Shown: positions 5,812 through 27,980 of the stretch, in pieces
How positions within the stretch are numbered: the first letter of the stretch is position 1
How the letters are laid out: every line of letters begins with the position of its first letter
IMG/VR virus record: IMGVR_UViG_3300035438_001058
Coordinates: 21,209 to 85,208 of that record
Reading direction: 5' to 3' (one strand)
DNA: 64,000 nucleotides
Source of the DNA: a virus
Translations under genes and position numbers: made by a program
Notes under the pieces: model-generated
What the model saw: only the letters and a program-made list of their open reading frames with translations
The model's database searches: none
What the model was told of the DNA's origin: nothing

Positions 5812-6408
5812 TTAAATACTGTCCAGCAGAGCTCTGGGACTCTTAGGCACCATTACTGGCACCGCGTCTTCCCCGTCCCCGCCTTTAAGTAGGGTAGTAG
5901 CCATATTATATATGTCCCCTAATGTTGGTGACACTAAACCCGCTACTCTTTTCTGTCGGTTATGAAAGAACCTTTCATTTACCTCACTATCCGTTGTTGT
6001 ATGTCCAAAACACATTTCACCATCTTTACGATAGACGGACCCGCCTAATACTTCAGCGAAGGTAAGGAATGCCGACATACCAATGCCTAGAATTCCGTTC
6101 TTGCCCTTGCCTTCATCTTGTTTCTTCATATACCAACTCAAAGTCTCTACCCTAAAATACTCCAGCGCCTGATCTTGGGGTGGAATGTTTGGAGGGAGTT
6201 TAGATTCTCTCTTGAAATAAGAGATATTGGCGTTGATACCTCCAGTATCAGGGATCAATAGCACCGATTTAGGGTGATAGTGTTTCTGATCTGGTGAGAT
6301 TGTGACTACTTGCCACTCCCTGTCCAGAAAGTAATTCCGGATTTCAAGTGTTCCACAATCTGCGTATGGCTGCATTATTAACAGCCGTTTCTCAATGTTG
6401 GCGTCCAT
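5812..6408 (-). CDS. Degenerate class I glutamine-amidotransferase/peptidase C26-like protein
   Basis: LLIPDTGG...GILGIGMSA...VLGG resembles LLLxGG...ILGICRG...GG but lacks the catalytic Cys. Confidence 0.4.
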   Translation of the reverse strand: MDANIEKRLLIMQPYADCGTLEIRNYFLDREWQVVTISPDQKHYHPKSVLLIPDTGGINANISYFKRESKLPPNIPPQDQALEYFRVETLSWYMKKQDEGKGKNGILGIGMSAFLTFAEVLGGSVYRKDGEMCFGHTTTDSEVNERFFHNRQKRVAGLVSPTLGDIYNMATTLLKGGDGEDAVPVMVPKSPRALLDSI

Positions 6409-6661
6409 AGTATAAATGTTTTAGGTATTCTAGTATAATACCTTTTACGTGTTTCTGCGTTATTTTTTTGGCTGTACGACTTGCGAAAAAGTTGCTCGCA
6501 ACTAAGTACATGGTTTCAAAGTCGCCTACGGCCCCGTGAATAAATAAATCCTTGGGAATGCTGTTGTAAATGTCCCCAATGGTTTCAAATCCGAGGCTTC
6601 TAGCGAAGAAGCCGTTCTGCCCTTTTACGAGCATCCGACTTGTTTTTTCTGTTATGATCAT
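6392..6661 (-). CDS. Hypothetical protein (TGA stop)
   Basis: Tiles between neighbours. Confidence 0.55.
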   Translation of the reverse strand: MIITEKTSRMLVKGQNGFFARSLGFETIGDIYNSIPKDLFIHGAVGDFETMYLVASNFFASRTAKKITQKHVKGIILEYLKHLYYGRQH

Positions 6662-13100: not shown

Positions 13101-14193
13101 AATACGCTTGCCCCCCTGAATTTTTACATAGTGTTACCAGCTTTGTATTTTGTTCTTCTATGATAAACGCAGTTATTGGAATTGAAAATTCCTTTAGATC
13201 TACGTCATCTTGCCCATCATTTATAATCACGATCTCTGTACGTTCCGGAAGCTGGATATCATCTAAGAACCCAGTTTCCATTGATTGTCTCAGTTCTTCT
13301 AATACACCACCTATGTATGTAGTCCCCCCATTTGGATCCCTATACTGTTTGGATTTAAAATAGTCGATAGCAGAGGCACTGTCTAGTAATACACATTTAT
13401 CTCGAGTAGTTTCGAAATAAGACAATAATATCACAGAATTACCCGCCAGTACCATCTCAAATAGACCATCCAGTATTTTTGTTACGCATTGGATTTTGTC
13501 ATCATTGCTCATAGAACCGCTATCATCTAACAGAACTACGAGGTATTGTCGCTCCTCTTCATACTTTAAAGGTAGGGCTATCTCTAGCTTTCCTTCTGCC
13601 ATGTTGAAAAAGAACTCGTCATCATCTAAGCACAAAGATTCTTCTGTTAAAAAGTCAATGTGTTCAGATTTCCTATAATACTTTCTAGCTGCGGCTACTC
13701 TTGGTTTGCCGTAAACTAGATTTTTTTCAGTAATTTCGGCTCTTTGCATAACCTCAGAAAATCCTATATCAGGAATATCTTCTGATGCTTCAAGAGACTC
13801 ATCCCAGTCGAGTGGTGTAAAGTCTCTAGAACCTTCACCTCCTTTTTTGTCGCCAGTACGCTTCTCTTCTCTCTCCATTTTCTGGAGCATATCCTCAAGC
13901 TCACCATTTTCTGCTAAGCTGTTTAAGGACGAGTCTGGGTAAGTAGACAACATCTCAGCATATTTCCAGCCGATATCCATAATGTCTGACGTATCTTCAG
14001 CAATTCTGCTTTCAATAGCACTCAGCCACTTTAAATCTTCGGGTATATCGTAAACCTCTTGGAATACCTCTCTTGATGCTGCTGCAGTTATGACAGACAT
14101 CATACGCAGAGCTCTAGCATTTAGCTCTTTTGCTTGAGGCAGAGCTCTTAACTCATCTACAGAAGGAGGTGCCCATTTATAAGGCTCTATCAC
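13069..14193 (-). CDS. von Willebrand factor A (MIDAS) protein
   Basis: VVLLDDSGSM, GGT, IIINDG. Confidence 0.85.
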   Translation of the reverse strand: MIEPYKWAPPSVDELRALPQAKELNARALRMMSVITAAASREVFQEVYDIPEDLKWLSAIESRIAEDTSDIMDIGWKYAEMLSTYPDSSLNSLAENGELEDMLQKMEREEKRTGDKKGGEGSRDFTPLDWDESLEASEDIPDIGFSEVMQRAEITEKNLVYGKPRVAAARKYYRKSEHIDFLTEESLCLDDDEFFFNMAEGKLEIALPLKYEEERQYLVVLLDDSGSMSNDDKIQCVTKILDGLFEMVLAGNSVILLSYFETTRDKCVLLDSASAIDYFKSKQYRDPNGGTTYIGGVLEELRQSMETGFLDDIQLPERTEIVIINDGQDDVDLKEFSIPITAFIIEEQNTKLVTLCKNSGGQAYYVADRDFQLL

Positions 14194-15185
14194 AGCCTAG
14201 GCCTTGATAGGTTCTCAATAGCGTTTTGCTGGAGAGCTTGCGCTTTCTTTACCAGGCCCTTCAATCTGCCAGAGTAAACCCCATCAGTTGGGATAACTTT
14301 AAGGTTTCTGATCAGTCGTTGAGCCAGAGCGAGCAGTTTTAGATGCTGCTCTACGTTCGTGGTTACTTCCGCCAAGTTGACGGTTTTCTCTATCTCCTCG
14401 ATTTCCGCTATATACGGGAATGAGGCTTCTAGAGCCAACAACTCGTCGTAAACCATCTGCGTCATACCCCTAAAGGTGCGCAGTGCTTGTAGTCCGCCGA
14501 TTTCATGAATTCGGCGCATCATCATTACATCTCTAGGGGATACTTCAAATCCCAAATCATGGCACTTTTCTGCGATGCGAGCAACTTGAAGATCTGAAAA
14601 GCCTCTAGCCTCGAACATGGATTGAAAGTCATTAGCGGTGTAGCTAGGCCACTCAACTTTATGAGTGAACGCAAATCGACCTAACAGGGCATTGCGACTC
14701 TGGTCCTTCCCTGCCCATTTAAGAGGGTCTACATTTGTGCAAATGATAAGGGTTTGCAACTTATTAGGTTCGCATACCCCGTTAATGCAAATGTAACCTC
14801 TCTGTAGACCATCTTTTAAGGACAGCAGGAGATCGTCAGGTGCGTCAAATCCTTCTTCAAGGATCGCGTACCGGCTTTTGAGAAACACAGTATCTTCAAG
14901 CACTGTTTTCCGTTTACCCTCTTCTCTGAGGGTTTTGATGTCTGTGTACCCGACAAAAGGGCTCGCATCCATCTGCTGGGAGCAGGAAGCGATGTACGTT
15001 TCTCCGTAAAAATTGGGCGTCATTATTTTCAAACAAGCCTCCGCTATGTCTGATTTTGCGTGACCGCCCGGTCCGTGTAGAATTATGTTACTCTTTGACT
15101 TTAGAGCGTAGTAAATCGCTTCTGCAGTCGTCTGAGAGTGAACAAACTGGGACGTGATGGTATTCAAAAATTCTGGTAATTCCAT
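14190..15185 (-). CDS. MoxR-like AAA+ ATPase (TGA stop in GTGA overlap)
   Basis: IILHGPGGHAKS, AILEE, ALLGRF, SPR; coupled to the vWA gene. Confidence 0.8.
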   Translation of the reverse strand: MELPEFLNTITSQFVHSQTTAEAIYYALKSKSNIILHGPGGHAKSDIAEACLKIMTPNFYGETYIASCSQQMDASPFVGYTDIKTLREEGKRKTVLEDTVFLKSRYAILEEGFDAPDDLLLSLKDGLQRGYICINGVCEPNKLQTLIICTNVDPLKWAGKDQSRNALLGRFAFTHKVEWPSYTANDFQSMFEARGFSDLQVARIAEKCHDLGFEVSPRDVMMMRRIHEIGGLQALRTFRGMTQMVYDELLALEASFPYIAEIEEIEKTVNLAEVTTNVEQHLKLLALAQRLIRNLKVIPTDGVYSGRLKGLVKKAQALQQNAIENLSRPRL

Positions 15186-16080: not shown

Positions 16081-16320
16081 TTACTTTTCAATACTCCGCC
16101 ACTTCTTGCGGATATCCGCCAACTCTTTCCCGAACAAGTCGTCCGAAACTGTTGACTCGGAGTAAAGGGCATCTGCTTTGGCGTTGATCTGGGCCAGCGC
16201 AGACACCTTCAGATTTTCCAAATCCACTACCAGATTAGTGGATTTAGGAGGAGGTCTTAGGCTTCTACCTATAAGAGTCCCCACTATAGCGGCAGCTAGT
16301 ACCGCAAACATTGTTTCCAT
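16081..16320 (-). CDS. Small membrane-anchored protein
   Basis: N-terminal hydrophobic helix. Confidence 0.55.
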   Translation of the reverse strand: METMFAVLAAAIVGTLIGRSLRPPPKSTNLVVDLENLKVSALAQINAKADALYSESTVSDDLFGKELADIRKKWRSIEK

Positions 16321-16829
16321 AAGTCGTAAAATACTTTTTCGGAAGCACTACCATGAGCGTCTCCAAGATGAGCGAATATTCCCGCTTCAGTACATACCCA
16401 GTCTTCTATGCCCTCTCTTTTGAGACGGTTAATAAAGGCCAGTCTATATTTAGCGGGAACTTTGTCCACGTATTCTTTCGCACTATTTCTCAACACAAAT
16501 ATTGAATTTTGTGCCAAGACGGCGGTTTCCACTCCATTCACCCACTTTGGGTGGGTGTACTCGTGCGCAAACAGCAGAGTAAGAAAATCCTCTGCTGGAA
16601 TGTTTCTTTCTTTTTCTCCGTCGTAAGCACAAGTCACTAGACTTCCGTTTACGGTGATTTTTGGCAGCGAAGACCCTTTAGGGGGTTTCACTATATTGGT
16701 ACTAATCTTCCCCCACAAAGAAGGGAATCTGAAAGGGGGTTTGGCGTTTACACACCAACTGCTCCATGCTTTATACACACGGTACAGGTAAACCCCCAGC
16801 AAGATCGCGCAACCTAGAATTACTTTCAT
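16296..16829 (-). CDS. Hypothetical protein with N-terminal TM (start re-assigned to 16829)
   Basis: MKVILGCAILLG begins in a TAATG overlap. Confidence 0.55.
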   Translation of the reverse strand: MKVILGCAILLGVYLYRVYKAWSSWCVNAKPPFRFPSLWGKISTNIVKPPKGSSLPKITVNGSLVTCAYDGEKERNIPAEDFLTLLFAHEYTHPKWVNGVETAVLAQNSIFVLRNSAKEYVDKVPAKYRLAFINRLKREGIEDWVCTEAGIFAHLGDAHGSASEKVFYDLWKQCLRY

Positions 16830-17014
16830 TATTCCAGGTCTCTGCATCTGCACATTACTGAATCCGTAAGGATCCCATTTGGTTGGGTGTTTTCCCTTAC
16901 ACACTCCCAAAAAGTCTGGGTGTGGGAGTACTTTTCCCATTTGTCGTACAGCCATAAAGCCGCCACAAATATAGTAGCGACTTTTATGACTTTAAATAAC
17001 CGTTGTTTACTCAT
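16829..17014 (-). CDS. Small membrane protein with Cys motif
   Basis: MSKQRLFK start at 17014, TM segment, TAATG coupling. Confidence 0.5.
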   Translation of the reverse strand: MSKQRLFKVIKVATIFVAALWLYDKWEKYSHTQTFWECVRENTQPNGILTDSVMCRCRDLE

Positions 17015-17032
17015 ATAAATTGATTTGGTGAG

Positions 17033-17123
17033 TGCCAGCAACAGGAGTCGAACCTGTATTTCATTACACGAACCCTTGAACGGAGAACCGTATAATGCGC
17101 ATTACCGCTAATGCTATGCTGGC
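17033..17123 (-). ncRNA. tRNA-like RNA with elongated anticodon arm
   Basis: Acceptor GCCAGCA/TGCTGGC, D arm GCAT-TAGCGGTA-ATGC, T arm ACAGG-TTCGACT-CCTGT; anticodon arm is 36 nt rather than 17. Confidence 0.75.
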
Positions 17124-17251
17124 TTAAAACCCCCCACCTGCATTCAGGTAGGGGGTAAACCGGCTCTGATAAAGTGTGCCCTTTCGGGGCCTGTAGTACG
17201 CTCACGACTAAACAGTCCAGAATAATCGCGCGACACTTCCAGTTTCCTCTA

Positions 17252-17596
17252 TCAGGCCTTCCCGTGTAAATACTCATCCAACGCCGAATCTTTATCCGAC
17301 GCTGGATATGCTAGTGGGTTTAGAGGGTGCGTCTCATGTACCGCTCCATCTTTAAATATCCACCAGCGAGTTTCTTTGACTACTAAAATGTGCTCTACGC
17401 GACATTTTAAGTAGTACTTAAATTCAAACAGTCCCCTCTTCTCCTCTATAATGGAGATGTACTCTGTAACCATATGGTCCAAGAGTTCTGGGACACCTGT
17501 AATGCCTTTAAGGCAAGATAGAATACCGAACATTGCGGGTATGCTATCCTCCTGCGAGGACTTTATCTTTAGGATTGACCGGAGATGACTAATCAT
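17252..17596 (-). CDS. Hypothetical protein (TGA stop)
   Basis: ORF track. Confidence 0.55.
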   Translation of the reverse strand: MISHLRSILKIKSSQEDSIPAMFGILSCLKGITGVPELLDHMVTEYISIIEEKRGLFEFKYYLKCRVEHILVVKETRWWIFKDGAVHETHPLNPLAYPASDKDSALDEYLHGKA

Positions 17597-27269: not shown

Positions 27270-27549
27270 GGGGGTGCCAGGTATTGATTGCACTCATAGG
27301 TTTGGTATTACTAGCAAGCAGTCTAAAGACTATAAATTTAAATAATCGACAATAATACTAATGACTTTGGTATCGGACTTCCGTCCTTTTCCACAGAAGC
27401 AGTTGCTCCTTCTGTTACTCAAGAGCAGCCAGTTTACCAGTACGCATAAGTTTACCACACTAATAGACTATAATATAGGTGTACAGAAGCTTGTAATTCT
27501 AGAATATTAAACGAGTCGTAAGACAGCGGTTCGAATCCGCTCACCTCCA
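27270..27549 (+). ncRNA. ssrA: Phage tmRNA
   Basis: Acceptor GGGGGTG/CACCTCC-A with G3:U, T arm AGCGG-TTCGAAT-CCGCT, internal tag frame 27348-27449. Confidence 0.85.
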
Positions 27550-27564
27550 CTAAAATTAATTATT

Positions 27565-27834: not shown

Positions 27835-27891
27835 ATCGCTAACAGTCGTTAGGTCTCGCCCTCCATGTCGTAAGATGTGAGGGGGCAATTC

Positions 27892-27963
27892 GGGGATATG
27901 GGGTAATCGGTAACCGGGAAGTCTTCAAAACTTTAGTTGTCTGTTCGAGTCAGACTGTCCTCG
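27892..27963 (+). tRNA. Opal suppressor tRNA, anticodon UCA (probably Trp)
   Basis: Acceptor GGGGATA/TGTCCTC, G73; anticodon arm GAAGT-CT TCA AA-ACTTT (TCA 27925-27927); T arm GTCTG-TTCGAGT-CAGAC; short variable loop. Confidence 0.92.
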
Positions 27964-27980
27964 CCCACAAAATTTTTATT

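Follow-up and report, generated by a model that had tools for sequence, protein, structure and literature searches.

A tRNA-shaped gene with a lengthened anticodon arm in a freshwater crAss-like phage as a possible non-decoding tRNA mimic

Introduction

Does an RNA that folds as a tRNA still read codons when its anticodon arm is 19 nt too long? To our knowledge, the removal of short non-ribozyme inserts from tRNAs is not known in bacteria or their phages; such inserts nevertheless recur in phage tRNA genes. The closest publication that we found is that of Devoto et al. 2019 (PMC6784885), in which conserved 'enigmatic introns' of Lak megaphage tRNAs were reported with no mechanism given and were treated in the models as introns of tRNAs that could otherwise be assigned (Phe, Gly, Thr, and Tyr). 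A later Lak paper takes these inserts simply as introns. In the literature searched, the papers on crAss-like phages mention suppressor tRNAs but not such inserts.

A gene of this shape was noticed by a first-pass annotation of the window, that is, the whole stretch of 64,000 nt analysed here (bases 21209–85208 of an 85-kb IMG/VR virus record). That annotation explained the gene as a tRNA mimic, a processing signal, or the precursor of a second UGA reader.

Results

Genomic setting

The portal protein encoded in the window is approximately 30% identical to the portals of gut crAss-like phages and 64–75% identical to those of a handful of IMG/VR contigs. The 24 sequencing runs listed as containing this DNA were lake-water and freshwater metagenomes, with no RNA run among them. 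The source is a freshwater/lake-water crAss-like phage of approximately 85–100 kb. Up to about 22 kb, the genes of the window are encoded by the minus strand; the late genes are on the plus strand. Many of its ORFs become longer when TGA is read as sense. The features that concern us here are as follows.

17033..17123, minus strand: tRNA-shaped gene of 91 nt without an encoded CCA (Rfam RF00005; ARAGORN with introns; cloverleaf fold)
17126..17156, minus strand: G+C-rich hairpin of 12 bp followed by UUUU (−23.9 kcal/mol, z = −3.4)
17252..17596, minus strand: upstream ORF of 114 aa without a family match, ending in TGA
16296..16955, minus strand: downstream ORF of 219 aa, or shorter from an internal Met (context)
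27891..27967, plus strand: canonical tRNA with anticodon UCA (ARAGORN; Rfam 52.8 bits)
27270–27552: tmRNA with a long predicted tag, adjoining the UCA suppressor tRNA

The UCA tRNA is the probable UGA reader of the phage. The tRNA-shaped gene sits between two ORFs of the same strand, and the G+C-rich hairpin ends 2 nt before its first base. This hairpin, which fell below the T-run threshold of the terminator scan, is likely the 3' end or a stabiliser of the upstream message. No host-type promoter was found upstream of the tRNA-shaped gene with sigma-70 and Bacteroidota (TTTG/TAnnTTTG) patterns. On the other side, a promoter-like TTTAAA-17-TATATT is present at 16996–16968 on the minus strand, and the downstream ORF has an alternative start at an internal Met (approximately 16829; window 16829–16955) followed by a signal-peptide/lipoprotein-like stretch.

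Fold of the 91-nt gene

The stretch 17033–17123 was missed by Rfam with its default filters and by ARAGORN without introns. Infernal and ARAGORN with introns allowed, which the first-pass annotation had named as checks, both recognised it. With sensitive filters, it belonged to RF00005 with 46.7 bits (gathering threshold 29; E = 4e-9), and the tRNA model placed a 25-nt insertion in the anticodon loop; ARAGORN called a tRNA-Arg(tcg) with a 19-nt intron. The minimum-energy fold of the whole 91-nt molecule was the cloverleaf (−36.9 kcal/mol, z = −5.0), and none of 200 shuffles folded as well. The tRNA-shaped RNA was placed correctly at first pass, in both position and strand. Independent lake metagenome assemblies contain the stretch, which rules out an assembly artefact. 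Its parts are given below.

17117..17123 with 17034–17040, minus strand: acceptor stem of 7 bp (7/7 Watson-Crick pairs), with discriminator A at 17033
17099..17114, minus strand: D arm, either a 4-bp stem with an 8-nt loop containing GG or a 6-bp stem with a 4-nt loop
17041..17057, minus strand: T arm, 5-bp stem with loop UUCGACU (DNA TTCGACT)
17062..17097, minus strand: long arm of 36 nt in place of the normal 17-nt anticodon stem-loop (10 bp, 3x1 internal loop, 3 bp, hexaloop)
17069..17087, minus strand: insert of 19 nt after triplet position 36 (canonical-register analysis)
17076..17081, minus strand: apical loop GUUCAA, with UCA at 17079–17077

No pair is broken among the 16 of the body and the 10 of the arm, and the variable loop is 4 nt. 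The tertiary set U8, A14, G18 G19, A21, and U54 U55 C56 A58 is present except for A14: position 14, nearly universally A in tRNAs, is U, a deviation that is equivalent to the alternative form of the D arm with a 6-bp stem. Further contacts could be read between G26 and A44, and between A15 and U48. The earlier description of the acceptor, D, and T arms as intact was therefore accurate for the stems, whereas the deviation at U14 had escaped it.

The register of the arm is set by the tRNA body, namely by G26, the stem 27–31 with 39–43, and the 4-nt variable loop. In this register, the arm consists of 5 bp, nucleotides 32–36, the 19-nt insert, nucleotides 37–38, and again 5 bp. Position 32 pairs with 38 and 33 with 37, and the final three bases of the insert are the partners of the triplet 34–36. 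The reported 9-bp stem CATTATACG/CGTGTAATG (17097–17089 with 17070–17062) enclosing 18 nt was confirmed, and a G.U adds a tenth pair; with the 3 bp beyond the internal loop, the arm has 13 pairs. The reported lengthening by 19 nt (36 nt vs 17) and the UCA within the tip also held. The arm alone folded with −11.9 kcal/mol (z = −4.7), and a random 26-nt loop added at least five pairs to a 5-bp stem in 0.7% of trials. The ten consecutive pairs, the z score, and the low chance rate indicate that the arm is a designed helix and not a random filling. Measured from the elbow, the tip of the arm accordingly sits roughly one turn of helix beyond the place of a normal anticodon. A UGA reader would have UCA in a 7-nt anticodon loop at the usual distance from the elbow, and a tRNA-Sec would in addition have an 8/5 acceptor/T helix and a long variable arm. 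These features were not found: the acceptor stem is 7 bp, the variable loop 4 nt, and the UCA lies in a hexaloop approximately 10 bp too far out.

Relatives

The only near-complete close relative was G003 (IMGVR_UViG_3300020049_010822, 99.9 kb), with a portal 64% identical to that of the window phage. Its homologues of the endolysin and of three further genes are syntenic with the window. Upstream of this block, in the same genome arm and the same orientation, a tRNA-Lys(UUU) of normal form is accompanied by a tRNA-shaped gene of 132 nt (L026:4136–4267; Rfam 46.6 bits). As in the window, a hairpin (7 bp) lies directly before this gene, and a gene with a signal-peptide-like start follows it.

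The arm of the G003 gene (L026:4161–4196) is exactly 36 nt and is divided in the same way: a 5-bp stem with one mismatch, 5 nt, 19 nt, and 2 nt. Both arms have a 3-nt 5' bulge and a short inner stem (3–4 bp in G003), and the tip of each shows UCA. The two genomes share the nine pairs from 28:42 to 36:i17, seven of them with different sequences. The similarity of the two arms exceeded that of shuffles (p = 0.004; 0.018 with the hairpin-preserving control). The comparison was made in an ungapped register, as the gaps introduced by MAFFT broke the structural register. The block AUUAUA/UGUAAU is common to both arms and lies 3 bp out of structural register, so that the 'compensated' pairs are not countable as strict covariation. 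The homologue covariation proposed at first pass as a check was accordingly seen, in this one relative, as kept pairs of changed sequence and not as covariation in the strict sense. G003 has U33/A37 where the window gene has A33/U37; the swap keeps the pairing but removes the decoding signature from the window gene. Judged from the rough synteny and the modest similarity of the arms, the two genes are likely orthologous.

Between its arm and its T stem, the G003 gene contains 46 additional nt. Among them is GCACTATAG, 9 nt that repeat the 5' end of the gene itself, so that two possible partners are available to the 3' acceptor strand. Read another way, the gene would be a tRNA-Ile(UAU) whose intron is 47 nt and whose variable arm is long; for G003, this reading would speak for an intron. 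A UCA tRNA is encoded in G003 as well, and the ORFs of this phage lengthen when TGA is read as sense. The UCA tRNA is followed by a stretch ending in a tRNA-like T arm (L031 complement, approximately 6130–6455). No tmRNA was called in G003, and this stretch may be the 3' end of one, in which case the gene order would be opposite to that in the window.

G006, a distant crAss-like phage from a lake (portal identity 32%), has a 91-nt tRNA shape (Rfam 48.6 bits) at L009 complement 1866–1957 (G006 89287–89377), whose anticodon loop encloses a hairpin of 16 nt; UCA is absent. When this hairpin is excised, the loop has the anticodon AGA or CGA, which correspond to Ser codons; the body is class I, and the variable arm is not long.

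The close-relative comparison of the arm is one with G003, since no other relative covers the region. Two scans for relatives through single neighbouring proteins found none, and a protein search with the downstream ORF gave one relative of 93% identity on a 7.5-kb contig. No tRNA-like gene was present in the syntenic region of the distant relatives collected by an ATPase alignment in IMG/VR and JGI metagenomes, and 19 further relative fragments contained no tRNA matches. Pattern scans (D and T arms; D loop and arm stem) retrieved only G003 and two chance matches. By blastn, no match was found in GenBank phages, and the 91-nt tRNA had none in the relatives. The intron calls of ARAGORN were noisy: several in relatives, such as Pro(agg) in L004 and Leu(aag) in L035, were ignored, being without Rfam support. 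A conserved ATPase-like protein is encoded at 14190–15185 of the window; it has a GPGGHAKS motif and no PHROG match, and is 42% identical in G003 and approximately 30% identical in many freshwater and other metagenome contigs.

Lake strains

Contigs from two other lake studies cover the 91-nt gene. One of them, spanning 17016–17407, had no change in the tRNA and two changes in 392 nt overall (at 17178 and 17252), and the downstream gene in the same run had 27 changes in 698 nt. The piece from the second lake (16989–17157) had two changes, whose positions were not listed. Across the lake strains, the neighbouring gene differed by 3–8%. Because the low divergence extends over the whole 17016–17407 piece, it is weak evidence for selection on the tRNA itself. 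None of the covering lake contigs lacked the insert. According to the first-pass annotation, relatives showing a normal tRNA with a recent random insertion would have spoken against its proposal; G003 has the same layout instead, and the insert persists in the lake strains. That the insert is a repeated or mobile element was ruled out, as it is unique in the genome of the window phage (G000) and absent from G003. A derivation from the suppressor tRNA of the phage was also ruled out, as the two tRNA bodies are unrelated.

Excision of the insert

Every contiguous cut that leaves a 5-bp stem and a 7-nt loop was considered. For a functional decoder, such a loop was expected to have U33 and a purine at position 37. 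None of the eight excisions in the canonical register gave both. Two of them had U33, followed by UCG and then U37. The cut directly after position 36 left A33 and U37, whose pairing would zip the loop up into a stem of 7 bp with 3 nt unpaired. Only off register, either with no position 26 or with a 4-bp stem and a 3-nt variable loop, did a loop with U33, ACG, and G37 result. The only excision that put UCA into a 7-nt loop had one stem mismatch, two G.U pairs, no position 26, and a variable region of 12 nt. Random 26-nt loops yielded a solution with U33 and a purine at 37 in 32% of cases. That no such solution exists here is thus ordinary for an RNA that is not a tRNA but would be very unusual in a decoder: nearly every true decoder with an intron should offer one. 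The gene has a short non-ribozyme insert in the anticodon loop, like other phage tRNA genes with inserts, but removal of the insert does not rebuild an assignable tRNA.

Neither the window phage nor G003 encodes an RtcB, an RNA ligase, or a tRNA splicing endonuclease, although host enzymes are possible; PF01974 was absent from G000 and G003. Between 16950 and 17260, no intron family matched at E up to 10. A group I intron was ruled out by size (19 nt vs a ribozyme core of approximately 200 nt or more), and an archaeal/eukaryal protein-spliced intron by structure, as the 10-bp helix is continuous with a single 3x1 internal loop and no bulge-helix-bulge. CGA and CGG codons are rare overall and are 3–5 times commoner in the minus-strand arm than in the late arm, which supports an Arg tRNA weakly at best. 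A20 is the main arginine identity element in E. coli; the D loop of the 91-nt gene has no A20.

Discussion

A non-decoding tRNA-derived RNA

Among the explanations offered at first pass, a mimic or a processing signal agrees best with the intact top half, the arm in a relative, and the lack of a restoring excision. The precursor of a second UGA reader found little support: a canonical UCA tRNA is present in both the window phage and G003, the excision that gives a UCA loop needs a defective stem, and the unprocessed tip would be about one turn too far out to decode. The 91-nt RNA probably no longer reads codons. Our preferred reading, a tentative one drawn from sequence and fold, is that the locus is a selectively kept gene for a non-decoding tRNA-derived RNA, either a tRNA mimic or a natural 'tRNA scaffold', which tRNA-processing enzymes would cut out of a longer transcript.

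The RNA would be transcribed within the leftward message of the early arm. RNase P would release its 5' end at 17123, just after the strong hairpin, which would then cap the upstream message; a 3' tRNase would trim at 17033, and the host would add CCA. The 12-bp acceptor/T stack, the elbow, and the missing CCA are features of a processing substrate, and by established substrate rules the intact top half should make the transcript acceptable to RNase P, the 3' tRNase, and the CCA-adding enzyme. The predicted product is a stable L-shaped RNA of approximately 94 nt that would misfit the decoding geometry of the ribosome and would offer a tRNA top half and a displayed hairpin to tRNA-binding factors. 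In passing, the element would punctuate the operon. The long arm would be the selected part of the mimic: the long helix is kept, in the 36-nt layout also found in G003, while the decoding loop is lost, which points to selection on the hairpin itself. The gene thereby separates two ideas, the conservation of a helix and the conservation of a decoding loop.

Alternative readings

A decoding tRNA with a mini-intron, in which the hairpin is cut out, for example by a double-strand RNase, and the halves are rejoined by a host ligase into an Arg tRNA (UCG- or ACG-like), is unlikely in our judgement but has several points in its favour. ARAGORN models exactly this tRNA, the insert comes directly after position 36 and masks the triplet by pairing, CGA and CGG are enriched in the arm where the gene lies, a loop with U33, ACG, and G37 exists off register, the G003 gene is readable as Ile(UAU) with an intron, and the Lak tRNAs have conserved inserts (PMC6784885). 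What weighs against it is the outcome of excision: no cut in the body register gives U33 with a purine at 37, the cut after 36 produces the zipped loop with A33/U37, and the ACG reading costs either a shortened 4-bp stem or position 26. The cuts implied at the borders of the insert would be staggered by 3 nt instead of 2. Moreover, the D loop has no A20, splicing and ligation enzymes are encoded in neither phage, and the window gene and its G003 counterpart would give different isotypes. Alternatively, and with a rather smaller chance of being right, the locus is a pure punctuation mark, in which only the acceptor/T/D half matters as a site for RNase P and 3' tRNase and the arm drifts freely. 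The position between two same-strand ORFs without a recognisable promoter of its own suits such a role, as do the strong hairpin ending 2 nt before the RNase P site and the hairpin directly before the G003 gene, and plant-mitochondrial t-elements are described as defining mRNA ends (PMC1920247). A drifting arm, however, should not keep a 10-bp helix or a 36-nt layout across phages whose portals share 64% identity.

The U14 in place of A14, the lack of a canonical loop, and the distant relatives without a tRNA in the syntenic region could also mean that a former tRNA was hit by an insertion and is now neutral. We consider this decay improbable, because the 16 body pairs and the 10 arm pairs are all intact, the helix of the insert is far better than chance, G003 has the same layout, and the lake strains, which differ by 3–8% in the neighbouring gene, show no change in the tRNA. 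It is very improbable that the RNA is tied to a module in which TGA is a stop, with a tip that mimics a suppressor anticodon loop and acts as a second UGA reader after processing or as a decoy for a factor on that loop. The tip UUCAA does equal the core of the suppressor loop CUUCAAA, the G003 arm, from a phage that is likewise TGA-recoded and equipped with a UCA tRNA, also has GUUCA at its tip, and the upstream ORF ends in TGA. These are two genomes only, possibly not independent, and GUUCA is also the core motif of a T loop. The tip has a stem of 3–4 bp and a loop of 6 or 3–5 nt where an anticodon stem-loop has 5 bp and 7 nt, a canonical suppressor is already present, and the insert-bearing shape of G006 is without UCA. 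We also see a very faint chance that, in these two TGA-recoding crAss-like phages, the long arm exists to present a UUCA loop, a copy of the core of the suppressor anticodon loop set one helical turn out. It would then be a decoy for, or a sensor of, some factor that targets either the UCA loop or UGA decoding, and would help to keep TGA a stop in its module. If this were true, the RNA would be a component of a phage genetic-code switch.

Comparison with known systems

The Lak inserts resemble the present one in being short, non-ribozyme, found in Bacteroidota phages with a recoded stop, and without a known removal mechanism. They are conserved among relatives; the layout of the window gene recurs in one relative, G003. 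The Lak tRNAs are assignable after excision, whereas the excisions of the window gene give no normal loop. The window phage is also a freshwater crAss-like phage of approximately 85–100 kb with an insert of 19 nt; the Lak side of this comparison is the published description. In group I and bulge-helix-bulge tRNA introns, too, the interruption is in the anticodon loop, but the window insert is only 19 nt, its 10-bp helix is continuous, and no splicing endonuclease was found in the phage.

In engineered tRNA scaffolds, an insert replaces the anticodon loop, and the tRNA body is kept for processing and stability. The window gene likewise retains the tRNA body and has its anticodon stem prolonged by a hairpin. 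Engineered scaffolds are man-made, while the window gene would be a natural, putative scaffold recognised from its sequence. Their use for recombinant RNA is among the subjects reviewed in PMC3401473. As with t-elements, on the description in PMC1920247, a tRNA-like fold between genes could set mRNA ends via RNase P/RNase Z. The lower halves of t-elements are usually degenerate, whereas the lower arm of the window gene is a well-kept long helix. At 91 nt, the gene is a compact construct for bench work on processing, RNase III cutting, and aminoacylation.

Long-hairpin tRNA shapes in IMG/VR

A pattern scan of IMG/VR with the D-loop AGCGGTA and the T-loop GGTTCGANTCC, at a spacing too wide for a class I tRNA, gave at least 118 stretches. 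Approximately 40 of the 119 matches listed were not callable as standard tRNAs. Several of the matches listed had a 7-bp acceptor stem and a single hairpin of approximately 15–18 bp replacing the anticodon arm (L069, also L086, L089, L122, and L136; L073/L140; L103; L126; and L130). Four of these long-hairpin forms scored 46–58 bits with the tRNA model at 97–103 nt, and L103 was below the threshold. Excision restored a canonical loop in one of the five forms checked, L130 (Lys-UUU).

Our analysis suggests that at least some phage tRNAs classed as 'intron-bearing' do not decode and are tRNA mimics. In that case, counts of phage tRNAs, arguments from codon supply, and inventories of suppressors would need correction where they were made with intron-tolerant finders, and a class of phage tRNA-scaffolded RNAs would be awaiting a function.

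Long paired variable arms are unusual for the Ile, Gln, and Lys isotypes. Many IMG/VR phage tRNAs of class I, with genes of 84–95 nt and often an encoded CCA, nevertheless have such arms, namely for Ile-UAU (L084, L145, L149, L150, L167, and L180), Gln-UUG (L082, L087, L181, and L184), and Lys-UUU (L108). In addition, a GOLLD RNA (Rfam 198 bits) was located at L130:10628–11075, beside a tRNA cluster on a 307-kb phage contig.
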